Shown: positions 2,813 to 49,517 of the stretch, piece by piece | How the letters are laid out: each line of letters begins with the position of its first letter | How positions within the stretch are numbered: the stretch's first letter is position 1 | From: Nitrospirota bacterium | GTDB lineage: Bacteria; Nitrospirota; Thermodesulfovibrionia; Thermodesulfovibrionales; SM23-35 | Reading direction: 5' to 3' | Assembly: GCA_040753575.1 (NCBI GenBank) | Contig: JBFMEC010000001.1 | Coordinates: forward strand, 1 to 55,863 | Length of the DNA: 55,863 nucleotides | Notes under the pieces: generated by a model | Told to the model about the DNA's origin: nothing | Databases searched by the model: none | The model's input: only the letters and a program-made list of their open reading frames with translations | Program-made: the position numbers and the translations under genes

Positions 2813-3225
2813 TAAAAGTGGACTTTTGGGCTGACGTCTTATCTGGAGAAGATTATATGGAATGTCAGGATGAGGCCAAAGTCGAGTATCTGAAGATAAG
2901 GCTTAAATCAGGGTTTAATAAAGATAAAGTTCCAAAGATGACTCTTATTTCACAGAAATCCTTCCGGAACTAAAAGCCTTAAAGAAAAAATAGACCAAAT
3001 AATCTCAGACCACATTCCTTCTATCACAAGCCAGAAATTACAAAAAAAGATTCTGCAAAAATTACAGGGAGAGTTATTTGAATAAGGATAAAAATCTTAT
3101 TGCCCTGATGCCGAGCATTCTCGTTGCAAGTCGTATACTGAGCATGGCTTTAAAAGGAGAATCAAAATAAGAGTCAAAAGAGACCTATGTTATAATTATG
3201 TAAATATTTCATGTAAGGAGGAAGC

Positions 3226-3465
3226 ATGCCATCTATGAAAGCGATCGAAGATAAAATCATCATGAAATTAAAAGACTTACCAGAAGAGGGGAAAAAGGAA
3301 GTACTTGCATATATAGATCATTTAAAAAGTAAAAAAACAGAAAAAACTCTAAGACTGATAAAGAAAACCGCAGGTGCATGGAAAGGGCTTATTGATACTG
3401 AAAAGTTAAAGCGTGATATTTATTCAGACAGGCTTATTTCTACAAGGTCAAGAGTCAAGTTTTGA
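3226..3465 (+). CDS. Antitoxin (DUF2281-like) of a VapBC-type pair
   Basis: 79 aa with an N-terminal KLKDLPEEGKKEVLAYIDHLKSKK pattern. The stop overlaps the TTG start of the downstream PIN gene (TTGA overlap at 3462-3465). RBS AAGGAGG upstream. Confidence 0.6.
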   Translation: MPSMKAIEDKIIMKLKDLPEEGKKEVLAYIDHLKSKKTEKTLRLIKKTAGAWKGLIDTEKLKRDIYSDRLISTRSRVKF

Positions 3466-3857
3466 AATATTTAATCGACACTGACTGGATTATAGACCAT
3501 CTTAATGGTATCGAATCTGTAACAAAGAAACTTGAAAAGTTAGCTCCTTCAGGCATCTGTACAAGTATCATATCTGTTGCTGAACTTTACGAAGGTGTAT
3601 ATGGTTCAAGGAATTACGAAGATAGCCTTAGTGCATTAGAAACTTTTCTTGAAGGTATTACAGTTTTACCCATAGACCAAGATATATGTAGAATCTTTGG
3701 AAGAGAAAGAAATAAATTACGGAAACATGGAAACATTATTGGAGACTTTGACCTTCTGATAGCCTCTATATGTTTAAGACACAATCTTACACTTCTGACA
3801 AATAATAAAGAACATTTTGAAAGAATAGATTCACTAAAAATTATCTCATTGGTATAG
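3462..3857 (+). CDS. vapC: PIN-domain toxin VapC
   Basis: 131 aa. Has the MKYLIDTDWIIDHL N-terminus (first acidic PIN residue), SVAELYEG and DLLIASICLRHNLTLLTNNKEHFERI. Translationally coupled to the antitoxin. Confidence 0.8.
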   Translation: MKYLIDTDWIIDHLNGIESVTKKLEKLAPSGICTSIISVAELYEGVYGSRNYEDSLSALETFLEGITVLPIDQDICRIFGRERNKLRKHGNIIGDFDLLIASICLRHNLTLLTNNKEHFERIDSLKIISLV

Positions 3858-4004: not shown

Positions 4005-4583
4005 ATGAGTTTATCCGGGAATATGAAAAATAGGTTAATAGAACTTATTATTGAAAAGGCTTTTAAATACAGCGAAGATCCTATGTTTAAGCTTGTTTCG
4101 GGCAGGATGAGCAACTATTATTTCAACTGTAAGGCTGTGTCTTTGCATCCTGAGGGGATGTATCTAATAGGGAATCTTATTTTTGATCATATCAAAGGCC
4201 TTGATGTGAGGGGAATTGGCGGGCTTACACTTGGTGCCGATCCGATAGCATGTGCTGTGGCTTATACATCCTATCTCAAAGGAAAGCCTGTAGAAGCCTT
4301 TGTAGTTCGCAAATCGCCGAAATCCCATGGGACAATGCTCTGGATAGAAGGGAATGTAAAAAAAGGCGATAAAGTGGTGATTATTGATGATGTCATCACG
4401 ACGGGCAAATCGACTATTGAGGCTATAGGAAGGGTAAAAGAAGAAGGACTTGAGATTGTAAAGGTGATCTCTCTCATCGACAGGCAGGAAGGTGGCAGAG
4501 AGGCCATAGAGGCATTAGGTTATAAAGTCGATTCTGTTATTACAAAGGCTGAGGTAATGGAGCTATATAGGCGTCAACTATAA
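4005..4583 (+). CDS. pyrE: Orotate phosphoribosyltransferase
   Basis: 192 aa with the PRPP-binding loop KVVIIDDVITTGKST and SGRMSNYYFNCK. RBS GAGGTGA. Confidence 0.9.
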   Translation: MSLSGNMKNRLIELIIEKAFKYSEDPMFKLVSGRMSNYYFNCKAVSLHPEGMYLIGNLIFDHIKGLDVRGIGGLTLGADPIACAVAYTSYLKGKPVEAFVVRKSPKSHGTMLWIEGNVKKGDKVVIIDDVITTGKSTIEAIGRVKEEGLEIVKVISLIDRQEGGREAIEALGYKVDSVITKAEVMELYRRQL

Positions 4584-4628
4584 TGCAGACATTGCTCAAA
4601 AATTTATTTAACTTTCACAACATCTGCG
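4583..4628. repeat. Short member of a MITE-like inverted-repeat family, positioned as a hairpin between convergent pyrE and oppC
   Basis: ATGCAGACATTGCTCAAAAATTTATTTAACTT matches the arm at 29113-29143 (reverse complement) at about 28/33. The right half CTTTCACAACATCTGCG is the reverse complement of the arm at 28998-29013 at about 14/16. Confidence 0.6.
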
Positions 4629-4636
4629 TTATTCAG

Positions 4637-5488
4637 TTAATGCCTCTCAGCCTCCCAGAGCCTTGGATCAAGGGCATCTCTTAATCCCTCTCCAACAAGG
4701 TTATAGCTTAAAACCGTAATCAATATTGCAAGCCCCGGATATAAAGAGAGCCACCATGCAACCTCTATATTATCCTTCCCCGAGGTTAAAATATTCCCCC
4801 AGCTCGGGTCTGGCGGTTGCACTCCAAGGCCGAGAAAGGAAAGGCCTGATTCAACGAGTATTGCACCGGCGATACCAAATGTGGCTGCCACAAAGACGGG
4901 TGAAAGGGCATTCGGCAGGATATGCCTGAATATAAGTCTGGCATCACTAACCCCCATAGCTCTTGCAGCACTGACAAAATCCCTTTCTTTTAAGGTGAGG
5001 AATTCTGCCCTGACAAGCCTCGCCACATCCATCCAGTTAGTGATTCCTATTACAGCCATTATCGTAAAAATACTGGGTTCAAGAATTGCAATAACGGCAA
5101 GTATCAGAAAGAAAGTTGGGAAGGCAAGCATAATGTCAACAAACCTCATAAGTATCGCATCTATCCTTCCTCCATAAAAACCAGCAACTGCGCCAATAAT
5201 AATACCTATTGCTATCGCAATCCCTACTGCAACGAAACCGACTTTTAAAGAGACCCTGCTCCCCCATATTATTCTTGAAAGCAGATCTCGACCGAGCTCG
5301 TCAGTACCTAATAGATGTGTTTTGCTCGGAGGTGAAAGCACATTATGGACATCTATCGCAGTTGGCTCATAGGGCGCAATGAAAGGCGCAAGAAGAGATA
5401 TAGTTATGAGTAACAACACTGTTATTGCACCAATGACAGAAAGCCTGTTCTCTGAGAATCTTCGGCCTATAACCTTCAAGAGTCTCAT
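4637..5488 (-). CDS. ABC peptide/nickel-type transporter permease (OppC/DppC family)
   Basis: 283 aa, about 6 TM segments, with the binding-protein-dependent transport EAA-like region [21 protein letters not shown]. 4-nt overlap with the upstream permease. Confidence 0.8.
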
Positions 5489-6477: not shown

Positions 6478-9315
6478 TCAGCCTATTGTCGGAACTTGGT
6501 CAGCCGTTGTCTTATCAAGGATGGCTTTTAAATACTTTCCCGTATAGGATTTTTTAACATTAATAATTTCTTCGGGTGGACCTTCAAAAATGATCCTCCC
6601 TCCTTTATCTCCACCTTCGGGACCTAAATCCACTATCCAGTCCGATGCCTTTATGACATCGAGGTTATGTTCGATAACAACAACTGTATTACCTGAGTCA
6701 ACCAGTCTCTGGAGCACATCGAGTAATGCCTTAACATCCCTGAAATGTAATCCCACTGTAGGCTCGTCAAGTATGTAAAGAAGCCCCTTCATTTCATAAG
6801 TTTTTCCGAAAGGAAATTTAGTTTCTCTCATAGCTTCTAACTCTGCGCATATTTTGAGCCTCTGTGCCTCACCTCCCGAAAGTGTAGTTGCCGGTTGACC
6901 GAGCCTGATGTAGCCAAGTCCTATATCTTTCAGTAAGGAAAGTTTATTTCTAACGGGAGCAATATCGGAAAAAAGTTCCATAGCTTCTTCTACCGTCATG
7001 TTCAGGACATCGTCTATATTTTTACCCCTGTAGGTTACCCGCAGGGCCTCTGGTTTGTATCTCCTGCCGCCGCATTTTTCACATTTAATATAGAGGTCTT
7101 CAAAGAAATACATCTCAAGCCTCTGGTATCCTTCACCTTTGCAGGTCTCACATCTGCCTCCTGGCACATTAAAGGAGAAGAATCCTTGCCCGTATCCGTA
7201 GGTCTTTGCCTCTGTCTGTTCTGCGAAGAGTTTTCTTATTACATCGAAGACCTTCAAATATGTCACGGGATTCGAACGGGGAGTCCTGCCTATTGGTGTC
7301 TGGTCGATGAGTTTAATGCCTCTTAAAAACTTGGTACCTTCAATCTTTTCATAGGGCAAGGGGAATTCTCTTTCGCCTTGAAACTCCTTAGCCAGTACCC
7401 TATAGAGAGTCTCTACAATGAGGCTGCTTTTTCCTGAACCTGAGACCCCTGTCACTGTTGTAAGCGTCTGTAAAGGGATATGGAGATCCACGGACTTCAG
7501 GTTGTTGCCCGTAGCACCAAAGAGCAAGAGTTTTCTCCCGCTGCCATTTCTCCTCTTCAGGGGAGGTTCTATTTTGTCAATTCCCTTTATATAACGTGAT
7601 GTTAGAGTATCAGTTTTAAGGAACTCCTCCATCGTACCTGAAAATACCACCTTTCCTCCTTTATGGCCACCTCCGGGGCCAAGTTCGACTATCCAATCGG
7701 CAGAACCTACGATCTCTCTATCATGTTCAACAACAAGTATGGAGTTACCAAGTCTCGAAAGATCTAACATAATGTCCGCAATTATTTCTGTGTCTCTTGC
7801 ATGGAGCCCGACTGTTGGTTCGTCCAGCACATAGAGTGTACCCGTAAGAAATGATGCAAGCTGGTTTGACAGGTTGATCCTCTGGTATTCACCTCCCGAA
7901 AGAGTCCTGCCATCGCGGCTCAGGTTAAGATAATCAATACCTACCCGCTGGAGGAACCTGAGTTTCATATCAATCTGCCTGAAGAGTTCCTTTGCAAGAT
8001 CTCTTTGAAAGGGAGATATCTCCAGATTTGCGAAAAACTTAATTATATCTGATACTGCCATCTCACTTAGTTCTGCTATATCAAGACCTGAAAGCCTGTA
8101 TGCCAGCGACTCCTTCCTTAACCTTTTACCATGGCATTGAGAACAGATTATAGGCCTTCTATACCGGCTAAGGAAAACCCTGATATGAAGCTTGTATCTC
8201 CTGCTTTCCATCTCCTCGAAGAAATCATCAATCCCATAAAAACTGCTGCTGCCTTTAAATAAACGAGCTTTCTCTTCAGGAGAAAAGTCTGCGTATGGCT
8301 TATTGATGTCAATGCCCCCTTTATGGGCGTTCTTTAAGAGCTGTCCTTTCCACCACCTGTAAGCGGGCTTGTCCCATGGCTCAACCGCACCCTCTGCCAC
8401 CGAACGATCTTTATCGGGAATTATCAAATCCTCATCATATCTGAGTATATTTCCGAATCCCTTGCAGGCAGGACAGGCACCAACAGGATGGTTGAAAGAG
8501 AAGAGAAGAGGATATGGTTTTGGCAGTTCGATGGTACATTCATCGCATATGTTTTCGGAAGTGAAAACGTGACCCGTGACCCGTGACCCGTGACTCGTAT
8601 TTATAATGATGACCTTTATTCTTCCCTTTCCTTCCTTCCATGCCATCTCTACGGAGTCCGAGAGTCTCGCCTCATCTTTGATCACAAGCCTGTCGAGGAC
8701 AATATCAATTAATCCCCCCTTGCCCCCCTTTAGTAAAGGGGGGATGGGGGGATTTTCGTCCTTTTGAAATTCCGAAATATCAACGACTTCGTCGTTGAGC
8801 CATAACCTGTAAAATCCCCTCTTCTTAAGCTCCCCGATTGATTCTCTTGTTTCGAAAAGTATGATAGCCTTTTCTCCTGAATGTTTTTCTACAAGCTCTG
8901 AAATCACCTGCGATGTATCCCACATTCTTATCTCCCTGCCGCAGTTTGGGCAAAAGGGTGTAGAAATTTTTGAGTAGAGGATCCTGAAGAGATCATAAAG
9001 CTCTGTCAACGTTCCAACGGTCGATCGTGATCCCTTAACAGGATTTTTCTGTTCAAGGGCTATGGCGGGTCTGATGTTGTGTATTGCATCAACATCAGGT
9101 CTATCAAGTTTCTCGAGAAAAAGTCTTGCATAGGTTGACAGAGATTCGATGAACCTCCATTGTCCTTCGGCAAAGACGGTATCAAAGGCAAGAGATGATT
9201 TCCCGGAGCCCGATACTCCTGTAATAGCTATGACCCTGTCATGGGGGAGACGGAGGTTAATATTCTTGAGGTTATTCTGCCGGGCACCCTCGATTATCAG
9301 TCTTCTTTCAGGCAT
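6478..9315 (-). CDS. uvrA: Excinuclease ABC subunit A
   Basis: 945 aa. Two ABC ATPase modules (GVSGSGKSSLAFDT and GVSGSGKSSL), LSGGE signatures, Zn-finger CxxC pairs, and an N-terminus IIEGARQNNLKNI. Confidence 0.97.
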   Translation of the reverse strand: MPERRLIIEGARQNNLKNINLRLPHDRVIAITGVSGSGKSSLAFDTVFAEGQWRFIESLSTYARLFLEKLDRPDVDAIHNIRPAIALEQKNPVKGSRSTVGTLTELYDLFRILYSKISTPFCPNCGREIRMWDTSQVISELVEKHSGEKAIILFETRESIGELKKRGFYRLWLNDEVVDISEFQKDENPPIPPLLKGGKGGLIDIVLDRLVIKDEARLSDSVEMAWKEGKGRIKVIIINTSHGSRVTGHVFTSENICDECTIELPKPYPLLFSFNHPVGACPACKGFGNILRYDEDLIIPDKDRSVAEGAVEPWDKPAYRWWKGQLLKNAHKGGIDINKPYADFSPEEKARLFKGSSSFYGIDDFFEEMESRRYKLHIRVFLSRYRRPIICSQCHGKRLRKESLAYRLSGLDIAELSEMAVSDIIKFFANLEISPFQRDLAKELFRQIDMKLRFLQRVGIDYLNLSRDGRTLSGGEYQRINLSNQLASFLTGTLYVLDEPTVGLHARDTEIIADIMLDLSRLGNSILVVEHDREIVGSADWIVELGPGGGHKGGKVVFSGTMEEFLKTDTLTSRYIKGIDKIEPPLKRRNGSGRKLLLFGATGNNLKSVDLHIPLQTLTTVTGVSGSGKSSLIVETLYRVLAKEFQGEREFPLPYEKIEGTKFLRGIKLIDQTPIGRTPRSNPVTYLKVFDVIRKLFAEQTEAKTYGYGQGFFSFNVPGGRCETCKGEGYQRLEMYFFEDLYIKCEKCGGRRYKPEALRVTYRGKNIDDVLNMTVEEAMELFSDIAPVRNKLSLLKDIGLGYIRLGQPATTLSGGEAQRLKICAELEAMRETKFPFGKTYEMKGLLYILDEPTVGLHFRDVKALLDVLQRLVDSGNTVVVIEHNLDVIKASDWIVDLGPEGGDKGGRIIFEGPPEEIINVKKSYTGKYLKAILDKTTADQVPTIG
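8571..8598. repeat. Heptamer tandem repeat GACCCGT x3 + GACTCGT inside uvrA
   Basis: Direct reading: gacccgt gacccgt gacccgt gactcgt. It encodes TSHGSRVTG on the minus strand, in a variable loop of UvrA. Confidence 0.9.
8711..8754. repeat. C-run/G-run palindromic element, in frame inside uvrA
   Basis: AATCCCCCC TTG CCCCCC TTTAGTAAA GGGGGG AT GGGGGG ATT. It is translated as PPIPPLLKGGKGG. The same architecture recurs at 19564-19604. Confidence 0.85.
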
Positions 9316-16906: not shown

Positions 16907-16926
16907 CTTTTACCTCCTTTCTAATA

Positions 16927-17010
16927 AAATTCTAAATTCCAAGCACTAAATCCTGAACAATATCTAAATCCCAAACTATTTGCAACATTAGAATTTGGAA
17001 TTTAGTGCTT
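16927..17010. repeat. Heptamer-word block with internal complementary arms
   Basis: AAATTCT AAATTCC AAGCACT AAATCCT ... AGAATTT GGAATTT AGTGCTT. The segment AAGCACTAAATCC is complementary to GGAATTTAGTGCTT with one indel. Confidence 0.7.
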
Positions 17011-17202
17011 TTCTTCGTGGTGGCATGGCATGTTATCCTCTTCAAAGAGTAAATCCTGTTCCAGCGATGACATAGACCACATGGATTCCTCTTTGACCTT
17101 GTTCTCTTCCGGCGAGTCCATGCCTAAAAACATGCTGTTTTGGAACCAGTTTATTCCTGCCCGAGATTCTGATGAATCTTCAGGAATGCCACCGTAAACC
17201 AT
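17002..17202 (-). CDS. Small acidic hypothetical protein (66 aa)
   Basis: Strong RBS AAAGGAGGTGA 9 nt upstream of the ATG, and a sigma70-like promoter upstream. No recognisable domain. The C-terminus is PCHHEEKH. Confidence 0.35.
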   Translation of the reverse strand: MVYGGIPEDSSESRAGINWFQNSMFLGMDSPEENKVKEESMWSMSSLEQDLLFEEDNMPCHHEEKH

Positions 17203-17836: not shown

Positions 17837-17976
17837 GCTTCCTCCAGCATTCTTTCATCATGATTTTTTTAGGATTTCTTTTTTTTATTTTAACTTAGCG
17901 TACAAAATTGCGTCAAATAACCCTTTACCCGTGAATGTTATAGATGCTAAAATCTCACCATCTTATTGACTGTTAT

Positions 17977-18011
17977 TTGGTTATTGGAATTTGGTTATTG
18001 GTAATTGAATA
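17977..18011. repeat. Heptamer tandem words directly upstream of the radC ATG
   Basis: TTGGTTA TTGGAAT TTGGTTA TTGGTAA TTGAATA. Confidence 0.85.
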
Positions 18012-18699: not shown

Positions 18700-18700
18700 G

Positions 18701-18887
18701 AATAACCAATCACCAAATTACAATGATCAATAAAAAGATAATAACCAATGACCAGGCGCCAATAGCCAAATATGCATGAATGAATAACCAAAGAAGAAAT
18801 CTTATAATTGTCTTTGTTGTTTACTGTTTGGATATTGGTATTTAGTTTGGAATTTATTTGGAGATTGGTTATTGGTGATTGGTTATT
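18701..18887. repeat. 187-bp heptamer-word element with perfect 16-bp terminal inverted repeats
   Basis: AATAACCAATCACCAA (18701-18716) is the exact reverse complement of TTGGTGATTGGTTATT (18872-18887). The interior consists of AATNACC-type words on the left and TTGGNNN-type words on the right. Confidence 0.85.
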
Positions 18888-18908
18888 TGATTTATAAAGG
18901 GGGTTTAG

Positions 18909-19526
18909 ATGGCAAAGATCAGGAATGCACTTATCAGCGTTTCGAACAAGAAAGGTATAGTGGATTTTGCAAAGGAGCTCAATTCAATGGGAGTCAAAAT
19001 AATCTCCACAGGTGGGACAGCGAAGACCCTGAAAGAGTCTGGCATACCAGTAAAAGAAGTTTCGGAACACACCGGGTTTCCAGAGATGCTCGATGGCAGG
19101 GTAAAGACTCTTCATCCGAAAATTCATGGAGGTTTGCTGTCAAGGAGAGATAATCCAAAGGATATGGAAGAGATTAAAAGGTACGGGATCGAACCGATTG
19201 ATATGGTAGTTGTTAATTTGTATCCCTTTGAAGAGACAATCTCAAAGCCAGATGTTACCTTTGCGGAGGCTATTGAAAACATTGATATAGGTGGGCCGGC
19301 GATGCTCCGGTCAGCCTCAAAAAATTTTAAGGATGTGGCTGTCATTGTTGATCCTGAAGACTACGGGAAGATAAGTGAGGAGATGAAAAGACTTGACGGA
19401 GATATCAGTTACAGGACGAGATTGGACCTCGCAAGAAAGGTTTTTAGACATACATCGAGGTACGATGCTATGATAGCGGATTACCTGAGTAAGGTGACAG
19501 GAGAAATTCTAAATTCGAAATCCTAA
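18909..19526 (+). CDS. purH: IMP cyclohydrolase domain protein (N-terminal half of PurH only)
   Basis: 205 aa with [44 protein letters not shown] and [10 protein letters not shown]. The ORF ends at the IMPCH/AICARFT domain boundary, and no AICARFT domain follows. Confidence 0.85.
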
Positions 19527-19560
19527 ATTCTAAACCTAAACAAATCCAAATTTCAAAATC
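19504..19560. repeat. Heptamer-word block overlapping the purH-N stop codon
   Basis: AAATTCT AAATTCG AAATCCT AAATTCT AAACCTA AACAAAT. The stop TAA at 19524-19526 lies inside a word. Confidence 0.85.
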
Positions 19561-19563
19561 CAA

Positions 19564-19604
19564 CCCCTCTTAATCCCCCTTTGGTAAGGGGGGACTTAGG
19601 GGGG
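19564..19604. repeat. C-run/G-run palindromic element (same type as in uvrA)
   Basis: CCCCTCTTAATCCCCC TTTGGTAA GGGGGG ACTTA GGGGGG, located 16 nt upstream of the purD ATG. Confidence 0.8.
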
Positions 19605-19619
19605 TATTTTGGGAGAGAG

Positions 19620-20876
19620 ATGAAGGTTCTTGTCATTGGTAGCGGAGGGCGTGAACATGCGATCGCCTGGAGGTTGTCGCAGAGCCGACATGTAAACAAG
19701 ATTTACTGTTGCCCGGGTAATGCTGGCATGGCAGAGATTGCCGAGTGCATTGATGTAAGTCCTGCCAACTTTGATACCCTGATAGACTTCGTGAAATACG
19801 AATGGATAGATCTGACAATTGTTGGATCAGAGGGCTCTCTTCTGGAAGGTATTGTTGATGTCTTTGAGAAAGAGGGCTGCAAGATATTCGGTCCCAACAG
19901 AAATGCTGCACAACTTGGATTGAGCAGAGTTTTCGCAAAGGATTTTCTTAGACTTCATAGTCTTCCAACAGCCGAATATAAAATTTTTACTTCCTATCTT
20001 CATGCCGAAGATTATGTGAGGCTGAAGGGAACTCCAATAGTAATAAAGGCTGACAGACACGTTGAGAGAGATGGTCTATTTATAGCTTCGACTATCGAAG
20101 AAGCAACGGATGCCCTCAGGTTGATCATGAGGGACAGGGGATTCGGTGAGCCTGGTAAAGGAGCAATAATAGAGGAAAGTCTTAAAGGGCAGGAGGTGTC
20201 CTTCATGCTATTTATCGATGGAAAAACAATTCTACCACTTCCAAGTTCAAAGAATTACCGTCACCTCTTTGATGATGATAAAGGCCCGCTTACGGAGGGA
20301 ATGGGCGCCTATAGTCCGGAGCCGGTTGTTACGAAAGAAGTCGAGGCAGTTATAATGAAAAAGATAATGTTGCCTCTGAGTAAGGCATTAAATTCTGAGG
20401 GCATAAAATATAAAGGTCTCCTCTATGCAGATCTTATGATAGACAGAGGGAAGCCCTATGTTTTAGATTTAAGGTGTTCCTTTGGAGACCCTGAGACCCA
20501 GACCATGCTTCCAAGACTCAAAACAGATTTTTTTGAAATTGTCTTGGCAACTGTGGAGGAAAGAATAGCTGATGCCACTTTAGAATGGAAACCCAGGACA
20601 TCAGTTTGTGTTGTCATTTCTTCGAAGGGATACCCCGGAAAATATCAGGAAGGGGTGATCATAAGGGGGCTTCAAAAGGCAAAGGCCATGAGAGACGTGG
20701 TACTATTTCATTCCGGCACATCTTTCTTAAATGATGATATTGTTACGGCAGGCGCCAGAGTTGTTTCTTTAACTGCCCTGGGTACCAGCATAAAAGATGC
20801 AAGGACTAAAGCATATGAGGCGGTGGAGAAGATACATTTCGAGGGGATGCATTACAGGAAAGATATCGGGATGTGA
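19620..20876 (+). CDS. purD: Phosphoribosylamine-glycine ligase
   Basis: MKVLVIGSGGREHAIAWRL and an ATP-grasp core. The start is trimmed from 19581 because the extension is encoded by the palindromic repeat. Confidence 0.93.
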   Translation: MKVLVIGSGGREHAIAWRLSQSRHVNKIYCCPGNAGMAEIAECIDVSPANFDTLIDFVKYEWIDLTIVGSEGSLLEGIVDVFEKEGCKIFGPNRNAAQLGLSRVFAKDFLRLHSLPTAEYKIFTSYLHAEDYVRLKGTPIVIKADRHVERDGLFIASTIEEATDALRLIMRDRGFGEPGKGAIIEESLKGQEVSFMLFIDGKTILPLPSSKNYRHLFDDDKGPLTEGMGAYSPEPVVTKEVEAVIMKKIMLPLSKALNSEGIKYKGLLYADLMIDRGKPYVLDLRCSFGDPETQTMLPRLKTDFFEIVLATVEERIADATLEWKPRTSVCVVISSKGYPGKYQEGVIIRGLQKAKAMRDVVLFHSGTSFLNDDIVTAGARVVSLTALGTSIKDARTKAYEAVEKIHFEGMHYRKDIGM

Positions 20877-20878
20877 AA

Positions 20879-20962
20879 AAATCCTAAATTCGAACTTTGA
20901 GCTTTGTTTAGGATTTAGATATTAGGATTTGGTATTTTGGTTATTGGTGTTTGGTTATTATA
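20879..20962. repeat. Hairpin plus heptamer-word block between purD and purE
   Basis: AAATCCTAAA (20879-20888) pairs with TTTAGGATTT (20907-20916). This is followed by GGATTTA GATATTA GGATTTG GTATTTT GGTTATT GGTGTTT GGTTATT. Confidence 0.8.
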
Positions 20963-24597: not shown

Positions 24598-24610
24598 CTA
24601 TCCTCCATTT

Positions 24611-24782
24611 TTAATAACCAATTTTAATAACCAAACATTAAAATTCTAAATTTCGGGCACTAAATCCCAAACAAATCCAAAATCCTAAATTCAAATGTCT
24701 GGAATCCAGAAAGTTTTGAGCGGTTGAAGTTTGAATTTAGAATTTTTCACTTCGTTTGTTTCTTGTTTGGTCATGGTTATTT
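24611..24782. repeat. Long imperfect palindrome built from heptamer words (rph-murI spacer)
   Basis: The left arm is TTAATAA CCAATTT TAATAAC CAAACAT TAAAATT CTAAATT ... AATCCTA AATTCAA. The right arm is TTTGAATTTAGAATTT ... TTGGTCATGGTTATT. Confidence 0.75.
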
Positions 24783-24792
24783 CAGAGTACCT

Positions 24793-28991: not shown

Positions 28992-29143
28992 ATGATGCAG
29001 ATGTTGTGAGAAAATTTATTTTTTGATACCTTAGTGTACCTCTAACTGATGGTTTTTGGAATATTTTAGTGGTTAAAACAAATGAAGATACTCCCAATAA
29101 ACTCATCAAGTTAAATAAATTTTCGAACAATATTTGCATCATC
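28992..29143. mobile_element. MITE-like element with ~31-bp terminal inverted repeats (pyrG-kdsA spacer)
   Basis: The left arm ATGATGCAGATGTTGTGAGAAAATTTATTT matches the reverse complement of the right arm, GATGATGCAAATATTGTTCGAAAATTTATTT, at about 26/31. A short relative lies at 4583-4628. There is no coding capacity. Confidence 0.6.
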
Positions 29144-35118: not shown

Positions 35119-36450
35119 ATGCATTTAATGATGAGATATTTTAGAATCCTTCTTTTTCCTCTTTTCTTGTTAATGCCAATGACTATCTATGCCGGGGAAG
35201 TAAAAGAATACGGGCTGGACAACGGAATTAAAGTCTTGATCATTGAAGAACATAAAGCTCCCGTGGCTACATTCCAGGTCTGGTATCGGGTTGGATCAAG
35301 AGATGAGCCTCTCTGCAAATCAGGTCTGAGTCATCTTCTCGAACACATGATGTTTAAAGGTACTTCAAAATATGGACCTGGTGTTTTCTCCAGGATAGTT
35401 CAGAAGAATGGCGGAATTGACAACGCCCATACTACTAAAGATTATACGGTCTACTTTGAGCTTTTTCCCTCTGACAGGATTTCCCTCCCCGTCGAACTCG
35501 AGGCCGATAGGATGCAAAACCTTACAATAAATCCTGAGGAGACTCCTCTGGAAAGAGGAGTCGTTATGGAGGAAAGAAGGTTGAAATATGAGGATGATCC
35601 AAAGAACTCTTTGTTCGAAGAGGTTGTGGCAGCCTCTTTCAAGGTGAGTCCCTATCAAAGACCTGTCATCGGTTGGATGTCTGACCTTAAGTCAATGGAG
35701 AGAGATGACCTGCATAATTTTTATAAAATTTACTATTCTCCTGAAAATGCGGTTATTATTGTTGTTGGAGATGTGAATGCCGAGGAGATGATAAGAAGAA
35801 TTATCTCATCCTTTGGAGAAATTCCTTCCGGTCCTAAAAGGAAGACCGTGACCTGTTTTGAACCTGAGCAGAGAGGTGAAAGAAGAGTTCTCCTTAAAAG
35901 AGAAGCGGAACTGCCCTATGTCCTCATAGCTTATCATACACCCAGTTTTCCCCACGAGGATAGCTTTGCCCTCGATGTCCTGAGCCTCATAATGGCTGGC
36001 GGGAAGAGTTCCAGCCTCTATCGATCCCTGGTTCATGAAAAAGAGATTGCCCTCGGTGCCTCCGCCGATTATAGCGGCTTCAACAGAGACCCCTATCTTT
36101 TTTTCCTTTCGGCAACGGCCTCTCCCGGGAAAGACATAAAGGATGTAGAAGATTCTCTCTATGCGGAGATTGAGAAGATAAAGGAACAGCCCCCTTCTGA
36201 GAGGGAGGTTCAGAAGGCAAAAAATCAGATCGAGTCATCTTTTATTATGGAGCAGGACTCTATTTATGTTCAGGCTATGAAATATGGACTCTTCGAGATG
36301 CTGGGAGACTGGAGGCTTATCGACAGATATCTTGAGGGGATAAGAAAGGTAAAACCTGATGATATAGTGAAGGTGGCAAAAAAATATTTAAAAGAGGAAA
36401 ACAGAACAGTGGGCATATTAATTCCCGCTAAAGAGCAAAATTTAAAATGA
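35119..36450 (+). CDS. M16 family zinc peptidase (active subunit)
   Basis: 443 aa with a signal peptide and the inverted zinc motif HLLEHMMFKG. Confidence 0.85.
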   Translation: MHLMMRYFRILLFPLFLLMPMTIYAGEVKEYGLDNGIKVLIIEEHKAPVATFQVWYRVGSRDEPLCKSGLSHLLEHMMFKGTSKYGPGVFSRIVQKNGGIDNAHTTKDYTVYFELFPSDRISLPVELEADRMQNLTINPEETPLERGVVMEERRLKYEDDPKNSLFEEVVAASFKVSPYQRPVIGWMSDLKSMERDDLHNFYKIYYSPENAVIIVVGDVNAEEMIRRIISSFGEIPSGPKRKTVTCFEPEQRGERRVLLKREAELPYVLIAYHTPSFPHEDSFALDVLSLIMAGGKSSSLYRSLVHEKEIALGASADYSGFNRDPYLFFLSATASPGKDIKDVEDSLYAEIEKIKEQPPSEREVQKAKNQIESSFIMEQDSIYVQAMKYGLFEMLGDWRLIDRYLEGIRKVKPDDIVKVAKKYLKEENRTVGILIPAKEQNLK

Positions 36451-37793
36451 AAAATTCAAAATCCAGGAAGATATTAATTATTTTATTAATTTTAAATTTT
36501 ACATTTTTAATTTTAAATTTAAAGAATGTTTTTGCCCTTGACGCAAAAAGGACTGTCCTTCCAAATGGTCTTATAGTCCTTCATTCAGAGAAGCACAACC
36601 TTCCTATAGTTATGGTTACTCTTCTTGTGAAGGCAAGCCCCCTTAATGAAGCAGAAGAGAAGGCGGGACTGGCCAATCTAACAGCTGAACTCCTTAGGGA
36701 AGGCACAAAGAAACGCTCTTCTTCAGAAATAAGTGAGGAGATTGAATTCATAGGTGCTTACCTCGATGTATCGGCCGGAATTGATTATACAACGGTAACT
36801 CTATCAGTCCTGAAAAAAGATATCAAGCAGGGCTTCGAGTTGTTTTCTGATATTCTGCTTAATCCTGTCTTTCCTGAGGGTGAGATCAAAAAGAAAAAGG
36901 AACTCATCAAGGGTTATATAAGACAGCGCCAGGAAGACCCCTCATTCATTGCAGAACAAACCTTCAAAAGAGGGGTCTTTGGTGAACATCCTTACGGAAG
37001 GCTCGTGGAGGGTTCCCCCGAAACTATTGATAAAATAAAAAGGGAAGACCTGACAAAATTCTATTCGGATTATTTTCTTCCGAACAATTCTATTCTATCT
37101 GTTGTAGGAGATGTCACCCCGGAGGAAGTCACTTCTCTGATAGAAAGATACCTTGGAGGATGGAAAAGGGCTGAGGTGAAATTAGTTACTGCTGGAAAAT
37201 CTGAAGTTAGGAAGATCAAAAAGATTTCAAAAATAGATAGGGATCTGAGCCAGGCAAATATTATTCTCGGTCATCTAGGCCTGAGCAGAGACAATCCGGA
37301 TTACTATGCGGTTTCTGTCATGAGCTATATACTTGGGGGAGGAGGCTTTTCATCGAGGCTCATGCGGTCAATAAGAAATGAAAAAGGCCTTGCCTACGAT
37401 GTATATAGTCTTTTCTCAGCCAACAAAGAAGGTGGAATTTTCCAGGTGGGTGTCCAAACAAGGAACGAGTCTGCCAATACAGTGATTGAAGAGATACTGA
37501 AACAGGTTGAAAGGATAAGAAAAGAGGAGGTTTCGGAGGAGGAACTGTCAGATGCTAAATCCTATCTGACGGGTAGTTTTCCCAGGAGGCTTGATACTAA
37601 TAGAAAGATTGCTGACTTCCTTGCCTCTGTGGAATTTTACAACCTCGGACTTGATTATGCGGAGAAGTATTATGGCTACATAAATTCGGTTACAAAGGAT
37701 AGTGTTCTGAAAGTTGCAAAGAAGTATCTCGATCCCGAAAATTATATTCTCGTTGTCGTGGCAGATCAGGAAAAGGCAAGTCTCAAATATTGA
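36447..37793 (+). CDS. M16 family peptidase, non-catalytic partner subunit
   Basis: 448 aa with the M16 fold pattern but no HxxEH. 4-nt overlap with the upstream M16 gene. Confidence 0.8.
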   Translation: MKNSKSRKILIILLILNFTFLILNLKNVFALDAKRTVLPNGLIVLHSEKHNLPIVMVTLLVKASPLNEAEEKAGLANLTAELLREGTKKRSSSEISEEIEFIGAYLDVSAGIDYTTVTLSVLKKDIKQGFELFSDILLNPVFPEGEIKKKKELIKGYIRQRQEDPSFIAEQTFKRGVFGEHPYGRLVEGSPETIDKIKREDLTKFYSDYFLPNNSILSVVGDVTPEEVTSLIERYLGGWKRAEVKLVTAGKSEVRKIKKISKIDRDLSQANIILGHLGLSRDNPDYYAVSVMSYILGGGGFSSRLMRSIRNEKGLAYDVYSLFSANKEGGIFQVGVQTRNESANTVIEEILKQVERIRKEEVSEEELSDAKSYLTGSFPRRLDTNRKIADFLASVEFYNLGLDYAEKYYGYINSVTKDSVLKVAKKYLDPENYILVVVADQEKASLKY

Positions 37794-37844
37794 TTTAAAT
37801 TCCAGAATCCAAAATCAGGATACAGGATTTTAGACCGTCTATCT

Positions 37845-38693: not shown

Positions 38694-38707
38694 GTGCTTA
38701 CCACCTC

Positions 38708-38820
38708 TAAATCACCAATAACCAATAATCAAACATCAAATAAATTCTAATAACCAAGCTCCAATGACCAAACAGTTTTGGAACTTGAGATTTGGTTATT
38801 GTAATTTGGTTATTGGTTTA
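38708..38820. repeat. Heptamer-word inverted block (lpxA-lpxI spacer)
   Basis: AAATCAC CAATAAC CAATAAT CAAACAT ... TAACCAA GCTCCAA TGACCAA is followed by GAGATTT GGTTATT GTAATTT GGTTATT GG. Confidence 0.8.
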
Positions 38821-38823
38821 TTC

Positions 38824-46471: not shown

Positions 46472-46480
46472 TAAAATATG

Positions 46481-46524
46481 ATAAAGGTTAAGGTTGAAAA
46501 ATATTTTTCAACCTTAACCTTTAT
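46481..46524 (+). promoter_or_regulatory. Perfect 44-bp palindrome (RNA stem-loop) between dsrB and dsrD
   Basis: ATAAAGGTTAAGGTTGAAAAAT followed by ATTTTTCAACCTTAACCTTTAT, an exact reverse complement. It starts 9 nt after the dsrB stop and ends 22 nt before the dsrD ATG, and it is built from AAGGTT words. Confidence 0.8.
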
Positions 46525-46546
46525 CTCAGAAAGAGGTGATACTTTT

Positions 46547-46795
46547 ATGGAGAAGGAAGAGTTAAAAGACAAGATTTTTGCTTTCTGTGAAAGGTTTAAA
46601 GGAAAGAAAAAACTGAAAGAGAGGGATGTGATTAAAGGTGTCTCCGAAGAGACAGGGACTCCTCCAGATGATGTTAAGAAGGCGCTTAGAGAAATGATTG
46701 ATGTGGGAAGGTTAATGTATTCTTATGCCGGCGGGGCTAGCTCTGTGGAAATACCGAGCGAGGAATATCTTAGAGAAAAAGGTCTTATAAAATAA
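46547..46795 (+). CDS. dsrD: DsrD
   Basis: 82 aa. It aligns to Desulfovibrio DsrD (from memory): KDKIFAFC, DDVKKALREMIDVGRLMYSYAGGASSVE vs REVKKILTALVNDEVLEYWSSGSTTMY. RBS AAGAGGTGA. The start is trimmed from 46478. Confidence 0.85.
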   Translation: MEKEELKDKIFAFCERFKGKKKLKERDVIKGVSEETGTPPDDVKKALREMIDVGRLMYSYAGGASSVEIPSEEYLREKGLIK

Positions 46796-46804
46796 ATCCC
46801 CAAT

Positions 46805-46910
46805 GAGTCATTAAGTCATTAAGATTATTCAGGAATCAGTAAAGTCAGCTATTTAAACCCAGCGTAATTGATAATGTTATAATAGATTTTGCTTGATGAC
46901 TTAATGACTC
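46805..46910. repeat. Inverted 19-bp arms built from GTCATTAA octamer words (dsrD-dsrN spacer)
   Basis: GAGTCATTAAGTCATTAAG (46805-46823) matches the reverse complement of CTTGATGACTTAATGACTC (46892-46910) at 18/19. The right arm overlaps the dsrN start. Confidence 0.85.
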
Positions 46911-48412
46911 AACTTAACCATTTAATTCCGAGAATTGTCATAGCCGGTCTTAGAGGCGGGTCTGGCAAGACTATTGTTAGCCTTGGTCTAATAGCATCTT
47001 TCAAGCGTGGAAACCTTACAATTGTTCCTTTCAAAAAAGGGCCTGACTATATTGACGCGGGATGGTTATCATATGCAGCAGGCAAACCATGTTACAATCT
47101 TGATCCTTTTTTAACCGGAAAGGATAAGATTTTATCCTCTTTCCGGAAGCATGCATTAGGTGCCCATTGCGCTTTAATAGAAGGAAATAGAGGACTTTTT
47201 GATGGCATGGATTCTGATGGTACCTATAGCACTGCTGAACTTGCAAAGTTATTAAAAGCCCCAGTCGTATTGATTATTGATTGCACAAAGATGACAAGAA
47301 CGGCTGCCATTATTGCTACTGGTATTCATAGGTTCGATCCTCGTCTCGAAATAAAGGGTGTGATCCTCAATCAGATAGCTAACAAACGCCATGAAAAAGT
47401 AATAAGAGAATCTTTTGAAAAATATTGCAAGCTTCCCGTTCTGGGTGCCCTTCCAAAAATATCGGAAGAGTTTTTCCCTGAAAGACATATGGGTTTAACA
47501 CCCTACCATGAACACAGAAAGGTCGAAAATTCGATTTCAGCTATTGAGGAGATAGCGGGGAAATATCTGAATTTAGAGAAAATCTGGAAGATTGTGAATG
47601 AAGCACCACCACTTGAATTTTTGAATGAGACCCACAAGGATTGGAGGATTCAAGTGGCCAAGAGGTCAAGTAAACTTGAATCCTTGAACCCTCGAATCCT
47701 TGAACCCTTTTCTGAAAGGGTTAGACCTGTGATCGGCGTTATAAAAGATTCTGCCTTCCAGTTTTATTATCCTGAAAACTTTGAAGAACTCCAGAAAAGA
47801 GGAGTGGAGCTGAAAGAAATAAGTGCCCTTAAAGCAAAAAGACTTCCTCAAATAGATGCCCTCTATATTGGCGGAGGTTTTCCCGAAACCCATGCCATAG
47901 CCCTTTCCGACAATATTGAGTTTCTCAACAATTTAAAAGAGGCGGTTGAAAAGGGACTACCTGTTTATGCCGAATGTGGAGGGCTGATGTTTCTGGGTGA
48001 ATCTCTTGTCCTTCATAGCAGGACATATCCAATGGCAGGTGTCTTCCCTCTAAAATTCTGCCTTGAGAAAAAGCCGCAGGCTCATGGATACACGATATTT
48101 GAGGTAGAAAGGACTAATCCTTATTATTCAGTTGGTACGGTCTTGAAAGGACATGAGTTTCATTATTCGAGAGTTTTAAATTCAGATGTTGCTTCGAGAA
48201 TCGGGACAGGTGATGATTTCTATTTTGCCTTTAAAATGAAACGAGGACTGGGCATATTCGAGAAAATGGATGGACTCTGCTATAAAAGTGTTCTTGCTAC
48301 CTATACTCATCTACATTCACTTGGAGCAGAGGAATGGGCAGATGGACTCGTTAATATGGCGAAGTCTTATAAGCTGAATGAATCACCAATGATCAGAGTA
48401 GATTTAGATTAA
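46904..48412 (+). CDS. dsrN: DsrN, cobyrinic acid a,c-diamide synthase-like amidotransferase (siroheme amidase)
   Basis: P-loop AGLRGGSGKT, a CbiA-type ATPase domain plus a C-terminal GATase (YAECGGLMFLG), in dsr context. ATG at 46904 is preferred over the TTG at 46889. Confidence 0.85.
   Translation: MTQLNHLIPRIVIAGLRGGSGKTIVSLGLIASFKRGNLTIVPFKKGPDYIDAGWLSYAAGKPCYNLDPFLTGKDKILSSFRKHALGAHCALIEGNRGLFDGMDSDGTYSTAELAKLLKAPVVLIIDCTKMTRTAAIIATGIHRFDPRLEIKGVILNQIANKRHEKVIRESFEKYCKLPVLGALPKISEEFFPERHMGLTPYHEHRKVENSISAIEEIAGKYLNLEKIWKIVNEAPPLEFLNETHKDWRIQVAKRSSKLESLNPRILEPFSERVRPVIGVIKDSAFQFYYPENFEELQKRGVELKEISALKAKRLPQIDALYIGGGFPETHAIALSDNIEFLNNLKEAVEKGLPVYAECGGLMFLGESLVLHSRTYPMAGVFPLKFCLEKKPQAHGYTIFEVERTNPYYSVGTVLKGHEFHYSRVLNSDVASRIGTGDDFYFAFKMKRGLGIFEKMDGLCYKSVLATYTHLHSLGAEEWADGLVNMAKSYKLNESPMIRVDLD
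47675..47706. repeat. Octamer tandem repeat inside the dsrN interdomain linker
   Basis: CTTGAATC CTTGAACC CTCGAATC CTTGAACC. It contains a 15-nt direct repeat GAATCCTTGAACCCT at 47678 and 47694, and encodes LESLNPRILEP. Confidence 0.85.
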
Positions 48413-48548
48413 GGTTAAGGCTAAGAGTTAAGGAAGTTCTAAATCTTCATCTTAACCTCAACCTTAATCTTAACCTTGACCTTCAGAGATTCAGGATTTG
48501 TTTGGGATTTGGATATTAGGATTTAGAATTTGAGGTTCAAATTGATCA
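48401..48548. repeat. About 150-bp block of 6-7-nt tandem words with complementary arms (dsrN 3' end to the next ORF)
   Basis: AAGGTT AAGGCT AAGAGTT AAGGAAG is complementary to CTTAAC CTCAAC CTTAAT CTTAAC CTTGAC. This is followed by GGATTTG TTTGGGA TTTGGAT ATTAGGA TTTAGAA TTTGAGG. The dsrN stop (48410-48412) lies inside the block. Confidence 0.85.
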
Positions 48549-48549
48549 T

Positions 48550-48897
48550 ATGAGAATGCAAAGAGGACGTAGAAGAGAGGCAAGATGTCCTTTCTGTGAT
48601 CGACCTATCGATGTACCTCATGAGGTGAAAACGGAATCGGGTAATTACATCCTGGGTGGGAAATGCGAGTGCACTGCCATCTATGTCTTCGACCGCAGCG
48701 GACATAGTTTGGGAGAGGCCTTCGTCGACGTCCTTAATTACGCCTGTGAAGGTAAGTGCGATAATCCCTGGGATTTGATACCGGGAGAAGATTATGAAGA
48801 GATTCTTTTGCGGTACGAACTCAATCATACCTTTTCAGAAAGCAGCAGGCGTGCCCGGGAGAATATGATTTTTATTTTGCTGAAGAAAGGCAAATAA
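48550..48897 (+). CDS. Cys-rich hypothetical protein (115 aa) embedded in the dsr locus
   Basis: ORF between dsrN and dsrC on the same strand, with three Cys pairs (CPFC, CEC, CEGKC) and a basic N-terminus. I recognise no family, and the RBS is weak. Confidence 0.5.
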   Translation: MRMQRGRRREARCPFCDRPIDVPHEVKTESGNYILGGKCECTAIYVFDRSGHSLGEAFVDVLNYACEGKCDNPWDLIPGEDYEEILLRYELNHTFSESSRRARENMIFILLKKGK

Positions 48898-49461: not shown

Positions 49462-49517
49462 GGTGGGAAGTAAAATATAAAATAAAAAAAGTTTACTTCC
49501 CACCCCCTGTTTTTTTC
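49462..49517 (+). terminator. Rho-independent terminator after dsrC
   Basis: Perfect 13-bp stem GGTGGGAAGTAAA / TTTACTTCCCACC (49462-49474 and 49492-49504), followed by a T-run (49510-49517). Confidence 0.85.

Follow-up and report, generated by a model that had tools for sequence, protein, structure and literature searches.

Tandem words and word-built hairpins in the intergenic spacers of a dsr-bearing Nitrospirota genome

Introduction

Heptamer repeats are common in scattered bacteria, and their origin and function have stayed unexplained after 35 years. What such repeats are, how they arise and whether they do anything are questions raised by a stretch of 55,863 nucleotides from a Nitrospirota bacterium (GenBank assembly GCA_040753575.1, contig JBFMEC010000001.1, positions 1 to 55,863), referred to here as the window. 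Many of its intergenic spacers hold tandem words of 6-8 nt, frequently facing a complementary array with which they could pair as a hairpin. The focal region of this study (48398-48548) lies between dsrN and an open reading frame (ORF) of 115 aa in the dsr gene cluster. An initial annotation, made from the sequence alone, listed ten blocks of this kind and called them 'STRR-like', after the short tandemly repeated repetitive (STRR) sequences of cyanobacteria. One 56-kb (55.9 kb) stretch of this genome was examined, together with orthologous loci of relatives.

The repeats are of the known heptamer-repeat kind, and what the Nitrospirota material adds is a comparative series at orthologous sites and an intragenic hot spot in dsrN. 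At four sites of the dsr cluster one genome may have an ordinary hairpin, another a hairpin made of its own set of words, and a third no hairpin. Such a series allows the conservation of structure to be split from the conservation of sequence and allows slippage to be tested against mobility, and the elements are of interest for how such repeats evolve rather than as a novel type of system. Gene calling is disturbed by the arrays as well, through false N-termini, overwritten stop codons and inserts in the dsrN linker, which is a warning for annotators of Nitrospirota metagenome-assembled genomes (MAGs).

Word arrays in the spacers

Twenty-seven spacers were defined from the long ORFs, and each was compared with 200 dinucleotide-preserving shuffles for autocorrelation and folding. 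Autocorrelation at period 6-8 was found in every repeat-bearing spacer (z 2.4-7.5, mostly at period 7), with z <2 in most other spacers. Tandem Repeats Finder (TRF) placed arrays of period 6, 7 or 8 within or beside most of the listed blocks (Table 1), including ten period-7 arrays of at least three copies in 55.9 kb, plus period-6 and period-8 arrays. In the focal region the period is 6 at 48409-48433 and 48451-48483 and 7 at 48501-48531. Between them the two measures bear out the presence of 6-8-nt word arrays at all ten blocks. The list itself was incomplete. Two hairpins had been overlooked, one within dsrN (~47633-47712) and a small one at 37794-37836, as had the arrays at 36436-36522 and in uvrA (8568-8598). 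The arrays are short, with 2-5 copies of the word, and vary in length.

Four recurring word families had been proposed. The 4.3 kb of spacer contain 23 copies of TTGGTNA or its complement (5.3/kb), a 12-fold excess over coding DNA (0.43/kb) and a z of 10 against dinucleotide shuffles. AAATYCT and its complement occur 18 times in the same 4.3 kb (4.15/kb versus 0.82/kb in coding DNA, 5-fold; z 5.2), and the octamer word occurs three times in spacers where 0.3 would be expected. For the AAGGYT hexamers, which occur in just two spacers of the dsr cluster, there is no overall enrichment (z 1.9). Without any prior choice of word, the most over-represented spacer 7-mers are AATAACC (17 copies versus 1.1 expected), ATAACCA and TAACCAA, with 15-17 copies against about one. 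TTGGTNA is dispersed over six loci, as is AAATYCT. A module of ~45 nt (..GGATTTGTTTGGGATTTAG..GAATTTAGAATTT) is found at 16915, 19495, 20895, 24630 and 48480, and its five copies are 60-80% identical and keep a strict 7-nt phase of T residues. No TAACTGA array was found in the window by TRF.

Words are present in 13 of the 29 spacers of at least 30 nt. The description of the spacers as built from words therefore holds for a subset, the rest being free of words. Repeat-bearing spacers make up 11/19 of the co-directional, 1/5 of the convergent and 1/5 of the divergent spacers, and those inside operons include spacers of dsrABDN and lpxA-lpxI. The arrays thus have the features of STRR or long simple sequence repeats, in that the unit is about 7 nt, set head to tail, and a few families, TTGGTNA among them, are dispersed over mainly intergenic sites. 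The label 'STRR-like' was apt.

Hairpins and one-sided arrays

According to the initial annotation each spacer can fold into a long imperfect hairpin. Eight of the blocks do fold as RNA at a significant or nearly significant level (z -2.4 to -10.6 against shuffles). No complementary partner exists for the focal block's right half or for two whole blocks (17977-18011, 19504-19560), and their folding z is close to 0. The focal region shows both arrangements in succession, reading AGATTTAGATTAAGGTTAAGGCTAAGAGTTAAGG, a loop and CTTAACCTCAACCTTAATCTTAACCTTGACCTT, then AGGATTTGTTTGGGATTTGGATATTAGGATTTAGAATTT, a GAGG Shine-Dalgarno sequence and ATG.

The placement of the hairpins relative to the genes is regular. 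In 7/7 cases the 5' arm starts 0-10 nt past the upstream stop codon, and the dsrN stop codon sits within the 5' arm of the focal hairpin. The 3' arm ends 14-63 nt ahead of the next start codon or, in the case of dsrN, contains it. The stop codons of purH-N (19524-19526) and dsrN (48410-48412) were correctly placed inside words by the initial annotation, as was the dsrN ATG (46904-46906) in the right arm of its own hairpin. Arrays also give rise to spurious N-terminal ORF extensions, as had been noted, at radC, dsrD and dsrN, and at purD as well.

Orthologous junctions in relatives

To what extent the elements recur was examined in 80 dsrB loci, which were scanned for complementary word-array pairs. 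Such pairs are present in at least 13 Nitrospirota loci, and their words are unrelated: AGAAGTC/ACTTCTC (L003), ACAGAAT/ATTCTGA (L007), AGGTTG/CTTAAC (L015), CAGGGGT/CCAACCC (L020), AGGGATT/CTAAACC (L027) and AAGGATTC/CTCGAACC (L029), among others. Comparison of orthologous spacers, suggested at the outset, thus finds a recurring architecture built from different words. Period 7 dominates throughout, with 17.9 such arrays per 100 kb of the window, against 5.8 for Nitrospirota-like loci and 1.06 for the other phyla. No array pair was detected by the scan in loci from other phyla, though L063 visibly carries such hairpins with arms of unequal period. In this locus, labelled Chloroflexi, very long word hairpins lie at 1048-1205 and 8698-8795, with 8-nt TTGGTGAG-type words in one arm and 7-nt CAATCTC words in the other (MFE -66.8 kcal/mol for one strand and -47.6 for the other; MFE, minimum free energy).

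One of four informative orthologous sites is the dsrB-dsrD junction. A strong stem-loop lies within 80 nt of the dsrB stop codon in 48/50 Nitrospirota-like loci (median z -4.7), compared with 3/14 loci from other phyla. Most of these stems are ordinary and GC-rich, e.g. AAGGCAGTCCCG..CGGGACTGCCTT, and in L050-L055 a classic GC stem is followed by a T-run. Word-built stems occupy the same position in the window, L001 and L022 (AAGGTT), L023 (TTTAAGG), L007 (AGGGATT), L017, L026 and L005. Since word-built stems replace ordinary stems at the same place, the word hairpin stands in for a conserved structure, and since a stem-loop is kept in 48/50 relatives whatever its sequence, at least this site is under structural constraint. 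The comparison shows that at least this one position needs a structure, which in some genomes is supplied by a word hairpin.

At dsrD-dsrN, the window and L001 have an octamer family, AGTCAWTR, in common, with 2 and ~5 copies, respectively, and each of the two has its dsrN ATG within one of the 3'-arm words. The hexamer at dsrB-dsrD likewise has two copies in the window and three in L001. Copy-number differences of this type within the same word families are a signature of slippage. The octamer word includes the dsrN start region (TTAATGACTC), suggesting that this arm was built from local sequence and not imported.

At the focal junction, the genes for DsrN and the 115-aa product abut or overlap in many relatives, leaving no spacer. 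Word hairpins are found there in L029 and L031, with words unrelated to those of the window, and a plain inverted repeat is found in L024 and L030. L081 is the relative from metagenomes that comes closest, and at 4856-5366, between dsrN and the homologue of the 115-aa ORF, it has a small ORF together with a second, partial copy of the 3' end of dsrN (..GLCYKNVLATYTHLHALGAEEW..), a layout which suggests a rearrangement at the junction occupied by the focal spacer.

Arrays within coding sequence

Word arrays are also found inside genes. The DsrN linker of the window, which joins the ATPase and amidotransferase domains, contains a word hairpin translated in frame and is 83 aa long, compared with ~61-64 aa in relatives without an insert. 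Where a word or plain hairpin is present, the linker (ERHMGL to DSAFxFYY) measures 74-108 aa. Word hairpins occur at this site in the window, L003, L004, L007, L020, L023, L027 and L029 (MFE z -2.5 to -6.5, period z 4.5-7.0), plain hairpins in L030, L031 and L035, and one-sided arrays in L032 (75 aa) and L037 (68 aa); L081 has two arrays that are not complementary. The same hot spot is seen in metagenome loci. The interdomain linker of DsrN, a CobB-like siroheme amidase, is thus a recurrent site of in-frame heptamer and octamer arrays whose words are unrelated across genera. As the units are 7-8 nt, a change in array copy number would shift the reading frame between the DsrN domains.

A second case is uvrA, a minus-strand gene at 6478-9315, which has an in-frame GTCACGG heptamer array of four copies at 8568-8598. 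Its translation, SHGSRVTGH, falls in the stretch that separates the UvrA interaction domain from the DNA-binding domain.

Table 1. Word arrays and word-built hairpins in the window. Energies are for RNA, in kcal/mol; z compares folding with shuffles, over the interval in brackets where this differs from the feature.
Feature	Position	Strand	Evidence	Placement and composition
Focal hairpin, left arm (TTAAGG/GATTTA)n, right arm (CTTAAC)n	48398..48486	+	TRF period 6, 4.0 and 5.5 copies; inverted repeat I20, 85% complementary; MFE -23.3; z -3.0; 2/200 shuffles fold equally well	Left arm holds last two dsrN codons and the TAA stop
One-sided AGGATTT/GGGATTT heptamer array	48487..48548	+	TRF period 7; z -0.2 (48487-48549)	Ends just ahead of GAGG Shine-Dalgarno and ATG (48550) of 115-aa ORF; ~45-nt module common to four other loci
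Perfect 21-bp hairpin (AAGGTT)2-loop-(AACCTT)2	46480..46525	+	I13, 100% complementary; MFE -29.1; z -10.6 (46478-46526)	Begins 8 nt past dsrB stop, ends 21 nt before dsrD ATG (46547)
Octamer hairpin (GAGTCATTAAGTCATTAAG ... CTTGATGACTTAATGACTC)	46804..46911	+	TRF period 8; MFE -32; z -5.7 (46803-46912)	Begins 8 nt past dsrD stop; right arm contains dsrN start codon
Word hairpin within dsrN (AAGGATTGGAGGATTCAAG ... CTTGAATCCTTGAACCCTCGAATCCTTGAACCC)	47633..47712	+	TRF period 8/16; MFE -29.8; z -3.2	Interdomain linker
Long imperfect hairpin filling radC-purH spacer	18700..18888	+	MFE -56.1; whole-spacer z -4.8 (18700-18908); 68 bp; I4, I11	16-bp perfect terminal arms AATAACCAATCACCAA ... TTGGTGATTGGTTATT; starts 0 nt after radC stop
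One-sided TTGGTTA array, radC leader, not a hairpin	17977..18011	+	TRF period 7/14; z -0.1	Directly upstream of likely radC ATG (18013); alignment to the RadC model begins only at residue 37-39 of the long ORF
One-sided, almost G-free AAATYCT array, unstructured	19504..19575	+	TRF period 7, 4.4 copies; z +0.2	Overlaps purH-N stop
AAATCCT/AGGATTT hairpin (20879-20932), then one-sided TTGGTTA array (20936-20958)	20879..20958	+	Hairpin z -2.4 (20877-20935); period-7 autocorrelation z 4.6	Starts 2 nt past purD stop; Shine-Dalgarno and purE ATG come next
Nested long hairpin, racemase gene / RNase PH spacer	24605..24785	-	MFE -45; whole-spacer z -3.3 (24598-24792); 61 bp	Outer arms AATAACC/TTGGTYA, inner arms AAATTCT/AGAATTT
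AATAACC ... TTGGTTA hairpin	38700..38823	-	TRF complementary pair, 0 mismatches; MFE -31.3; z -2.9	lpxA-lpxI spacer within operon
AAATTCY/RGAATTT hairpin	16925..17012	-	D3 family; MFE -23.1; z -3.9	Upstream of prepilin-type gene; module in common with 24639-24689 (80% identity)
Small AAATCC/GGATTT hairpin	37794..37836	.	Period-7 z 3.9; MFE z -2.0	Convergent spacer
AT-rich heptamer arrays (CAAAATT / AATTTTA); membership of the word-array class uncertain	36436..36522	+	TRF pair; weak fold	Where two M16 peptidase genes overlap; most of the signal peptide of the downstream M16 protein (MKNSKSRKILIILLILNFTFLILNL) is encoded by the arrays
TRF arrays	17972-18007, 18864-18887, 19504-19540, 20907-20930, 24673-24695, 38710-38732, 38792-38818, 46806-46823, 48409-48433, 48451-48483, 48501-48531		Period 6, 7 or 8	

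Origin and possible roles of the word hairpins

The explanation that we favour, with moderate confidence, is that the hairpins are repeats of the STRR or 'long simple sequence repeat' type produced by slippage together with arm-to-arm templating, and that where they are conserved they act as intercistronic RNA stem-loops. Short words, mostly heptamers, would be amplified in tandem via replication slippage. The complementarity of the arms would be maintained because one arm templates the other within the strand (quasi-palindrome correction) or because pairing is selected for, and the arrays would come to fill sequence that is free to vary. We infer local growth by slippage because copy numbers differ between the window and L001, heptamers predominate and one arm derives from the dsrN start next to it. 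Between co-directional genes the arrays would be transcribed, and the resulting stem-loops could serve as barriers to 3' exonucleases or as processing sites which set the relative stability of the neighbouring cistrons. A terminating ribosome would have to open any hairpin whose 5' arm lies near the stop codon, and for dsrN the opening would free a start codon otherwise hidden in the 3' arm. Both features, arms that begin close to a stop and a dsrN start held within a stem, point to possible coupling with translation of the upstream gene.

Several observations weigh against this explanation. Three of the listed pieces are one-sided arrays and are unable to form stem-loops. Among 23 co-directional hairpins the MFE of the sense strand is better than that of the antisense strand in 12 and worse in 11 (Wilcoxon p 0.55), and since sense RNA is not favoured over antisense, the G:U pairs provide no evidence for an RNA-specific structure. 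The hairpin at the focal junction is dispensable, because many relatives have no spacer there, and arrays and hairpins also lie within coding sequence (the dsrN linker and uvrA), as a purely mutational process would yield. No strain-level variants were found that show live copy-number change: an exact-protein look-up with DsrA and the product of the 115-aa ORF returned no record, and no close strain was found, the nearest relatives being L001 (80% identity in DsrB) and L081 (68% in DsrN, from a metagenome scan with DsrN). It is the strand symmetry, the dispensable focal spacer and the arrays in coding linkers that hold our confidence at this level.

These points bear most directly on the main rival explanation, in which a mutational bias peculiar to the lineage (heptamer slippage and fold-back templating) generates the arrays neutrally and they have no function of their own. 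Neutrality would account for arrays in spacers, leaders, the hypervariable dsrN linker and the uvrA loop alike, for the presence or absence of the array downstream of dsrN among relatives, for the symmetrical folding of the two strands and for words that differ from genome to genome. It has difficulty with the retention of the dsrB-dsrD stem-loop irrespective of sequence, and neither the co-directional bias nor the tight placement after stop codons is predicted by neutrality alone, although tolerance of insertions could mimic both. We regard a purely neutral origin as possible but not probable. Somewhat more doubtful again is a bolder proposal, that a self-organising process at the DNA level (slippage and fold-back template switching, seeded locally) continually rebuilds the RNA structures at gene junctions and writes itself into coding linkers, with the hairpin or array in the dsrN linker being either a regulatory structure conserved within the gene or a switch, prone to frameshifts, that acts on siroheme amidation. 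If this proposal were true, the elements would offer a tractable model for the de novo origin of STRR-type repeats and structured spacers.

Dispersal by transposition is unlikely. Non-autonomous mobile elements of the miniature inverted-repeat transposable element (MITE) type, or resembling the REPINs discussed below, could have been spread by a transposase encoded elsewhere in the genome, and this would fit the ~45-nt module at five loci, the TTGGTTA blocks at six, the 16-bp perfect terminal inverted repeats of 18701-18887 and the likeness of the focal spacer to an insertion when it is set beside relatives with overlapping genes. The copies, however, are merely 60-80% alike and differ in length, and no target-site duplications were seen at 18701/18887, 24611/24782 and 38709/38820. 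No transposase or RAYT domain was found among 50 window ORFs scanned against Pfam or NCBIfam (a few ORFs fell outside the scan), the octamer arm derives from the adjacent dsrN start, and orthologous sites in relatives hold unrelated words. A MITE was accordingly rejected, as terminal inverted arms are present but flanking duplications and near-identical copies are not. We give still less credence to the idea that the one-sided G/U-rich arrays are tandem 5'-leader sites where a post-transcriptional regulator of the CsrA, S1 or cold-shock type would bind, for which a precedent exists in the proposal made for the TAACTGA repeats of Beggiatoaceae (PMC4679880). The unpaired TTGGTTA and AGGATTT arrays, at radC, purE and the 115-aa ORF, are all in the sense orientation and within ~10-45 nt of the start codon, the A/C-rich array without a partner comes after a stop codon, and AGGATTT repeats create multiple GGA motifs beside the Shine-Dalgarno sequence. 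Against this, one-sided arrays number just four in the window, the words vary by locus and genome so that one binding specificity could not account for them all, stems hold the majority of the words, and no regulator gene is linked. Least probable by far is that the hairpins are transcription terminators, as their position after stop codons and the GC stem with T-run at dsrB-dsrD in L050-L055 might suggest. A terminator scan of the window found no U-tract or T-tract on the sense strand after any word hairpin, the stems are AT-rich, the hairpins sit inside operons, and the genome uses a canonical GC stem and U-tract where one is expected, after dsrC (49463-49516). An intrinsic (Rho-independent) terminator was ruled out on the basis of the AT-rich stems without U-tracts. 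Intercistronic stem-loops fit better than terminators because of the co-directional bias, the operon-internal positions and the missing U-tracts, and comparison among relatives speaks for a role as RNA stabiliser or as slippage substrate and against a canonical terminator. On our reading the elements are neither terminators nor MITEs, and probably not repetitive extragenic palindromic (REP) sequences. A known RNA family was likewise excluded as the identity of the hairpins, there being no Rfam 15 match at or above the gathering score on either strand of the whole window.

Comparison with known repeats

In several groups of bacteria, long simple sequence repeats are most often heptamers, a bias that has been attributed to polymerase slippage (Mrazek 2007, summarised in PMC4679880, PMC4692102). 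In cyanobacteria, STRR hairpins occur between hupS and hupL and elsewhere, with proposed roles in transcript stabilisation or translational coupling (PMC2670836). The repeats of the window resemble these in forming short tandem heptamer arrays at many intergenic sites from a few word families per genome, and in that the spacer often folds into a hairpin between co-transcribed genes. They differ in their host, a sulfite-reductase-bearing Nitrospirota anaerobe rather than the heterocystous cyanobacterium of the original STRR definition, and in the dominance of TTGGTTA and AGGATTT, the co-occurrence of hexamers and octamers and the low copy number. The STRR2 unit, credited to Mazel et al. in 1990, is said to be TTGGTCA, which would resemble the TTGGTNA of the window; our literature search did not confirm it.

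Xanthomonas genomes have ~185 GGGAATC arrays each, with 70-75 pairs in convergent orientation that could fold into stem-loops (Rehm et al. 2015, PMC4692102). These repeats lie between the same gene pairs in related species, with variable length and sequence (PMC4692102). Like GGGAATC and the GGGGA(C/T)T of Nostoc, the words described here are mostly heptamers, strongly over-represented in intergenic DNA, and some belong to a type made of a G-run, A and a T-run (AGGATTT in the window, AGGGATT in L007 and L027). The Xanthomonas and Nostoc repeats belong to hosts of another phylum and were studied as G-quadruplex formers. In the window quadruplex formation is unlikely because the words are AT-rich with at most GG or GGG runs, and this candidate was set aside in view of the lack of G3+ runs in series, which do occur in the relatives L020 and L027.

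Another precedent is found in marine Beggiatoaceae, where the word TAACTGA is repeated directly, 2-6 times, a short distance (a few nucleotides) upstream of start codons (MacGregor 2015, PMC4679880). The initial annotation knew of no equivalent in a dsr-bearing lineage, which has to be qualified, since these direct heptamers are published for the dsr-bearing sulfur oxidisers Beggiatoaceae and Thiocystis (PMC4679880). The literature search found no such repeat description for Nitrospirota. The TAACTGA arrays are matched by the start-proximal, one-sided TTGGTTA and AGGATTT arrays of the window, but they involve a single word and are nearly all direct (one inverted case in 170), whereas the arrays of the window are mostly paired.

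There is also a likeness to the dispersed extragenic imperfect palindromes known as REP sequences and bacterial interspersed mosaic elements (BIMEs) in enterobacteria and as REPINs in Pseudomonas, which lie in co-directional spacers and at 3' ends and stabilise mRNA 3' ends. The location bias and likely mode of action are alike. A REP or REPIN, however, is a single conserved palindrome of 20-40 nt tied to a REP-associated tyrosine transposase (RAYT), and the units found here are tandem words of 6-8 nt in variable copy number, not a fixed palindrome.

Host and neighbouring genes

The likeness to STRR sequences prompted consideration of a cyanobacterial or Beggiatoa origin for the window, which was ruled out by the placement of DsrB. 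This protein is at most 80% identical to that of any species representative, and its best matches all come from Nitrospirota / Thermodesulfovibrionia MAGs, indicating that the host is an uncultured, sulfate-reducer-type Nitrospirota of the Thermodesulfovibrionia type. The dsr cluster has the order dsrABDN-C-T-MK..OP and consists of dsrA, dsrB, dsrD (true start at 46547), dsrN, the 115-aa ORF, dsrC, a DsrT-like gene, dsrM, dsrK, dsrO and dsrP. Other genes of the window include radC, an N-terminal purH fragment, purD, purE, ftsH, the gene for RNase PH and a bamA-lpxD-fabZ-lpxA-lpxI operon.

The 115-aa ORF (48550-48897) encodes a Cys-rich product with CPFC...CEC motifs and has no Pfam or NCBIfam match. 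It adjoins dsrN in 47/160 loci retrieved, often overlapping the dsrN stop codon, and may be an unnamed gene of the dsr cluster. In the purine genes, purH consists of only the N-terminal 205-aa IMP cyclohydrolase part (18909-19526) and ends within a word array, and purD (19504-20932) has copies of one module on both flanks, with CTAAATTCGAA near 19512 and 20885. It is possible that a word array truncated or split purH. A large N6/N4 DNA methylase gene (65-3857, 915 aa) stands beside a pair formed by a small ORF and a PIN-domain toxin, in DNA of 33-37% GC, lower than elsewhere, and may represent a mobile or defence islet at the edge of the window. A second dispersed repeat, not built from words (ATRATGCAGAYRTTG...AAAATTTATTTAAC), lies at 4580-4614, 28992-29021 and 29108-29142. 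One copy follows a phosphoribosyltransferase gene, and an inverted pair (87% complementary, 91 nt apart) is located in the kdsA-pyrG spacer, which folds with an MFE z of -4.3.

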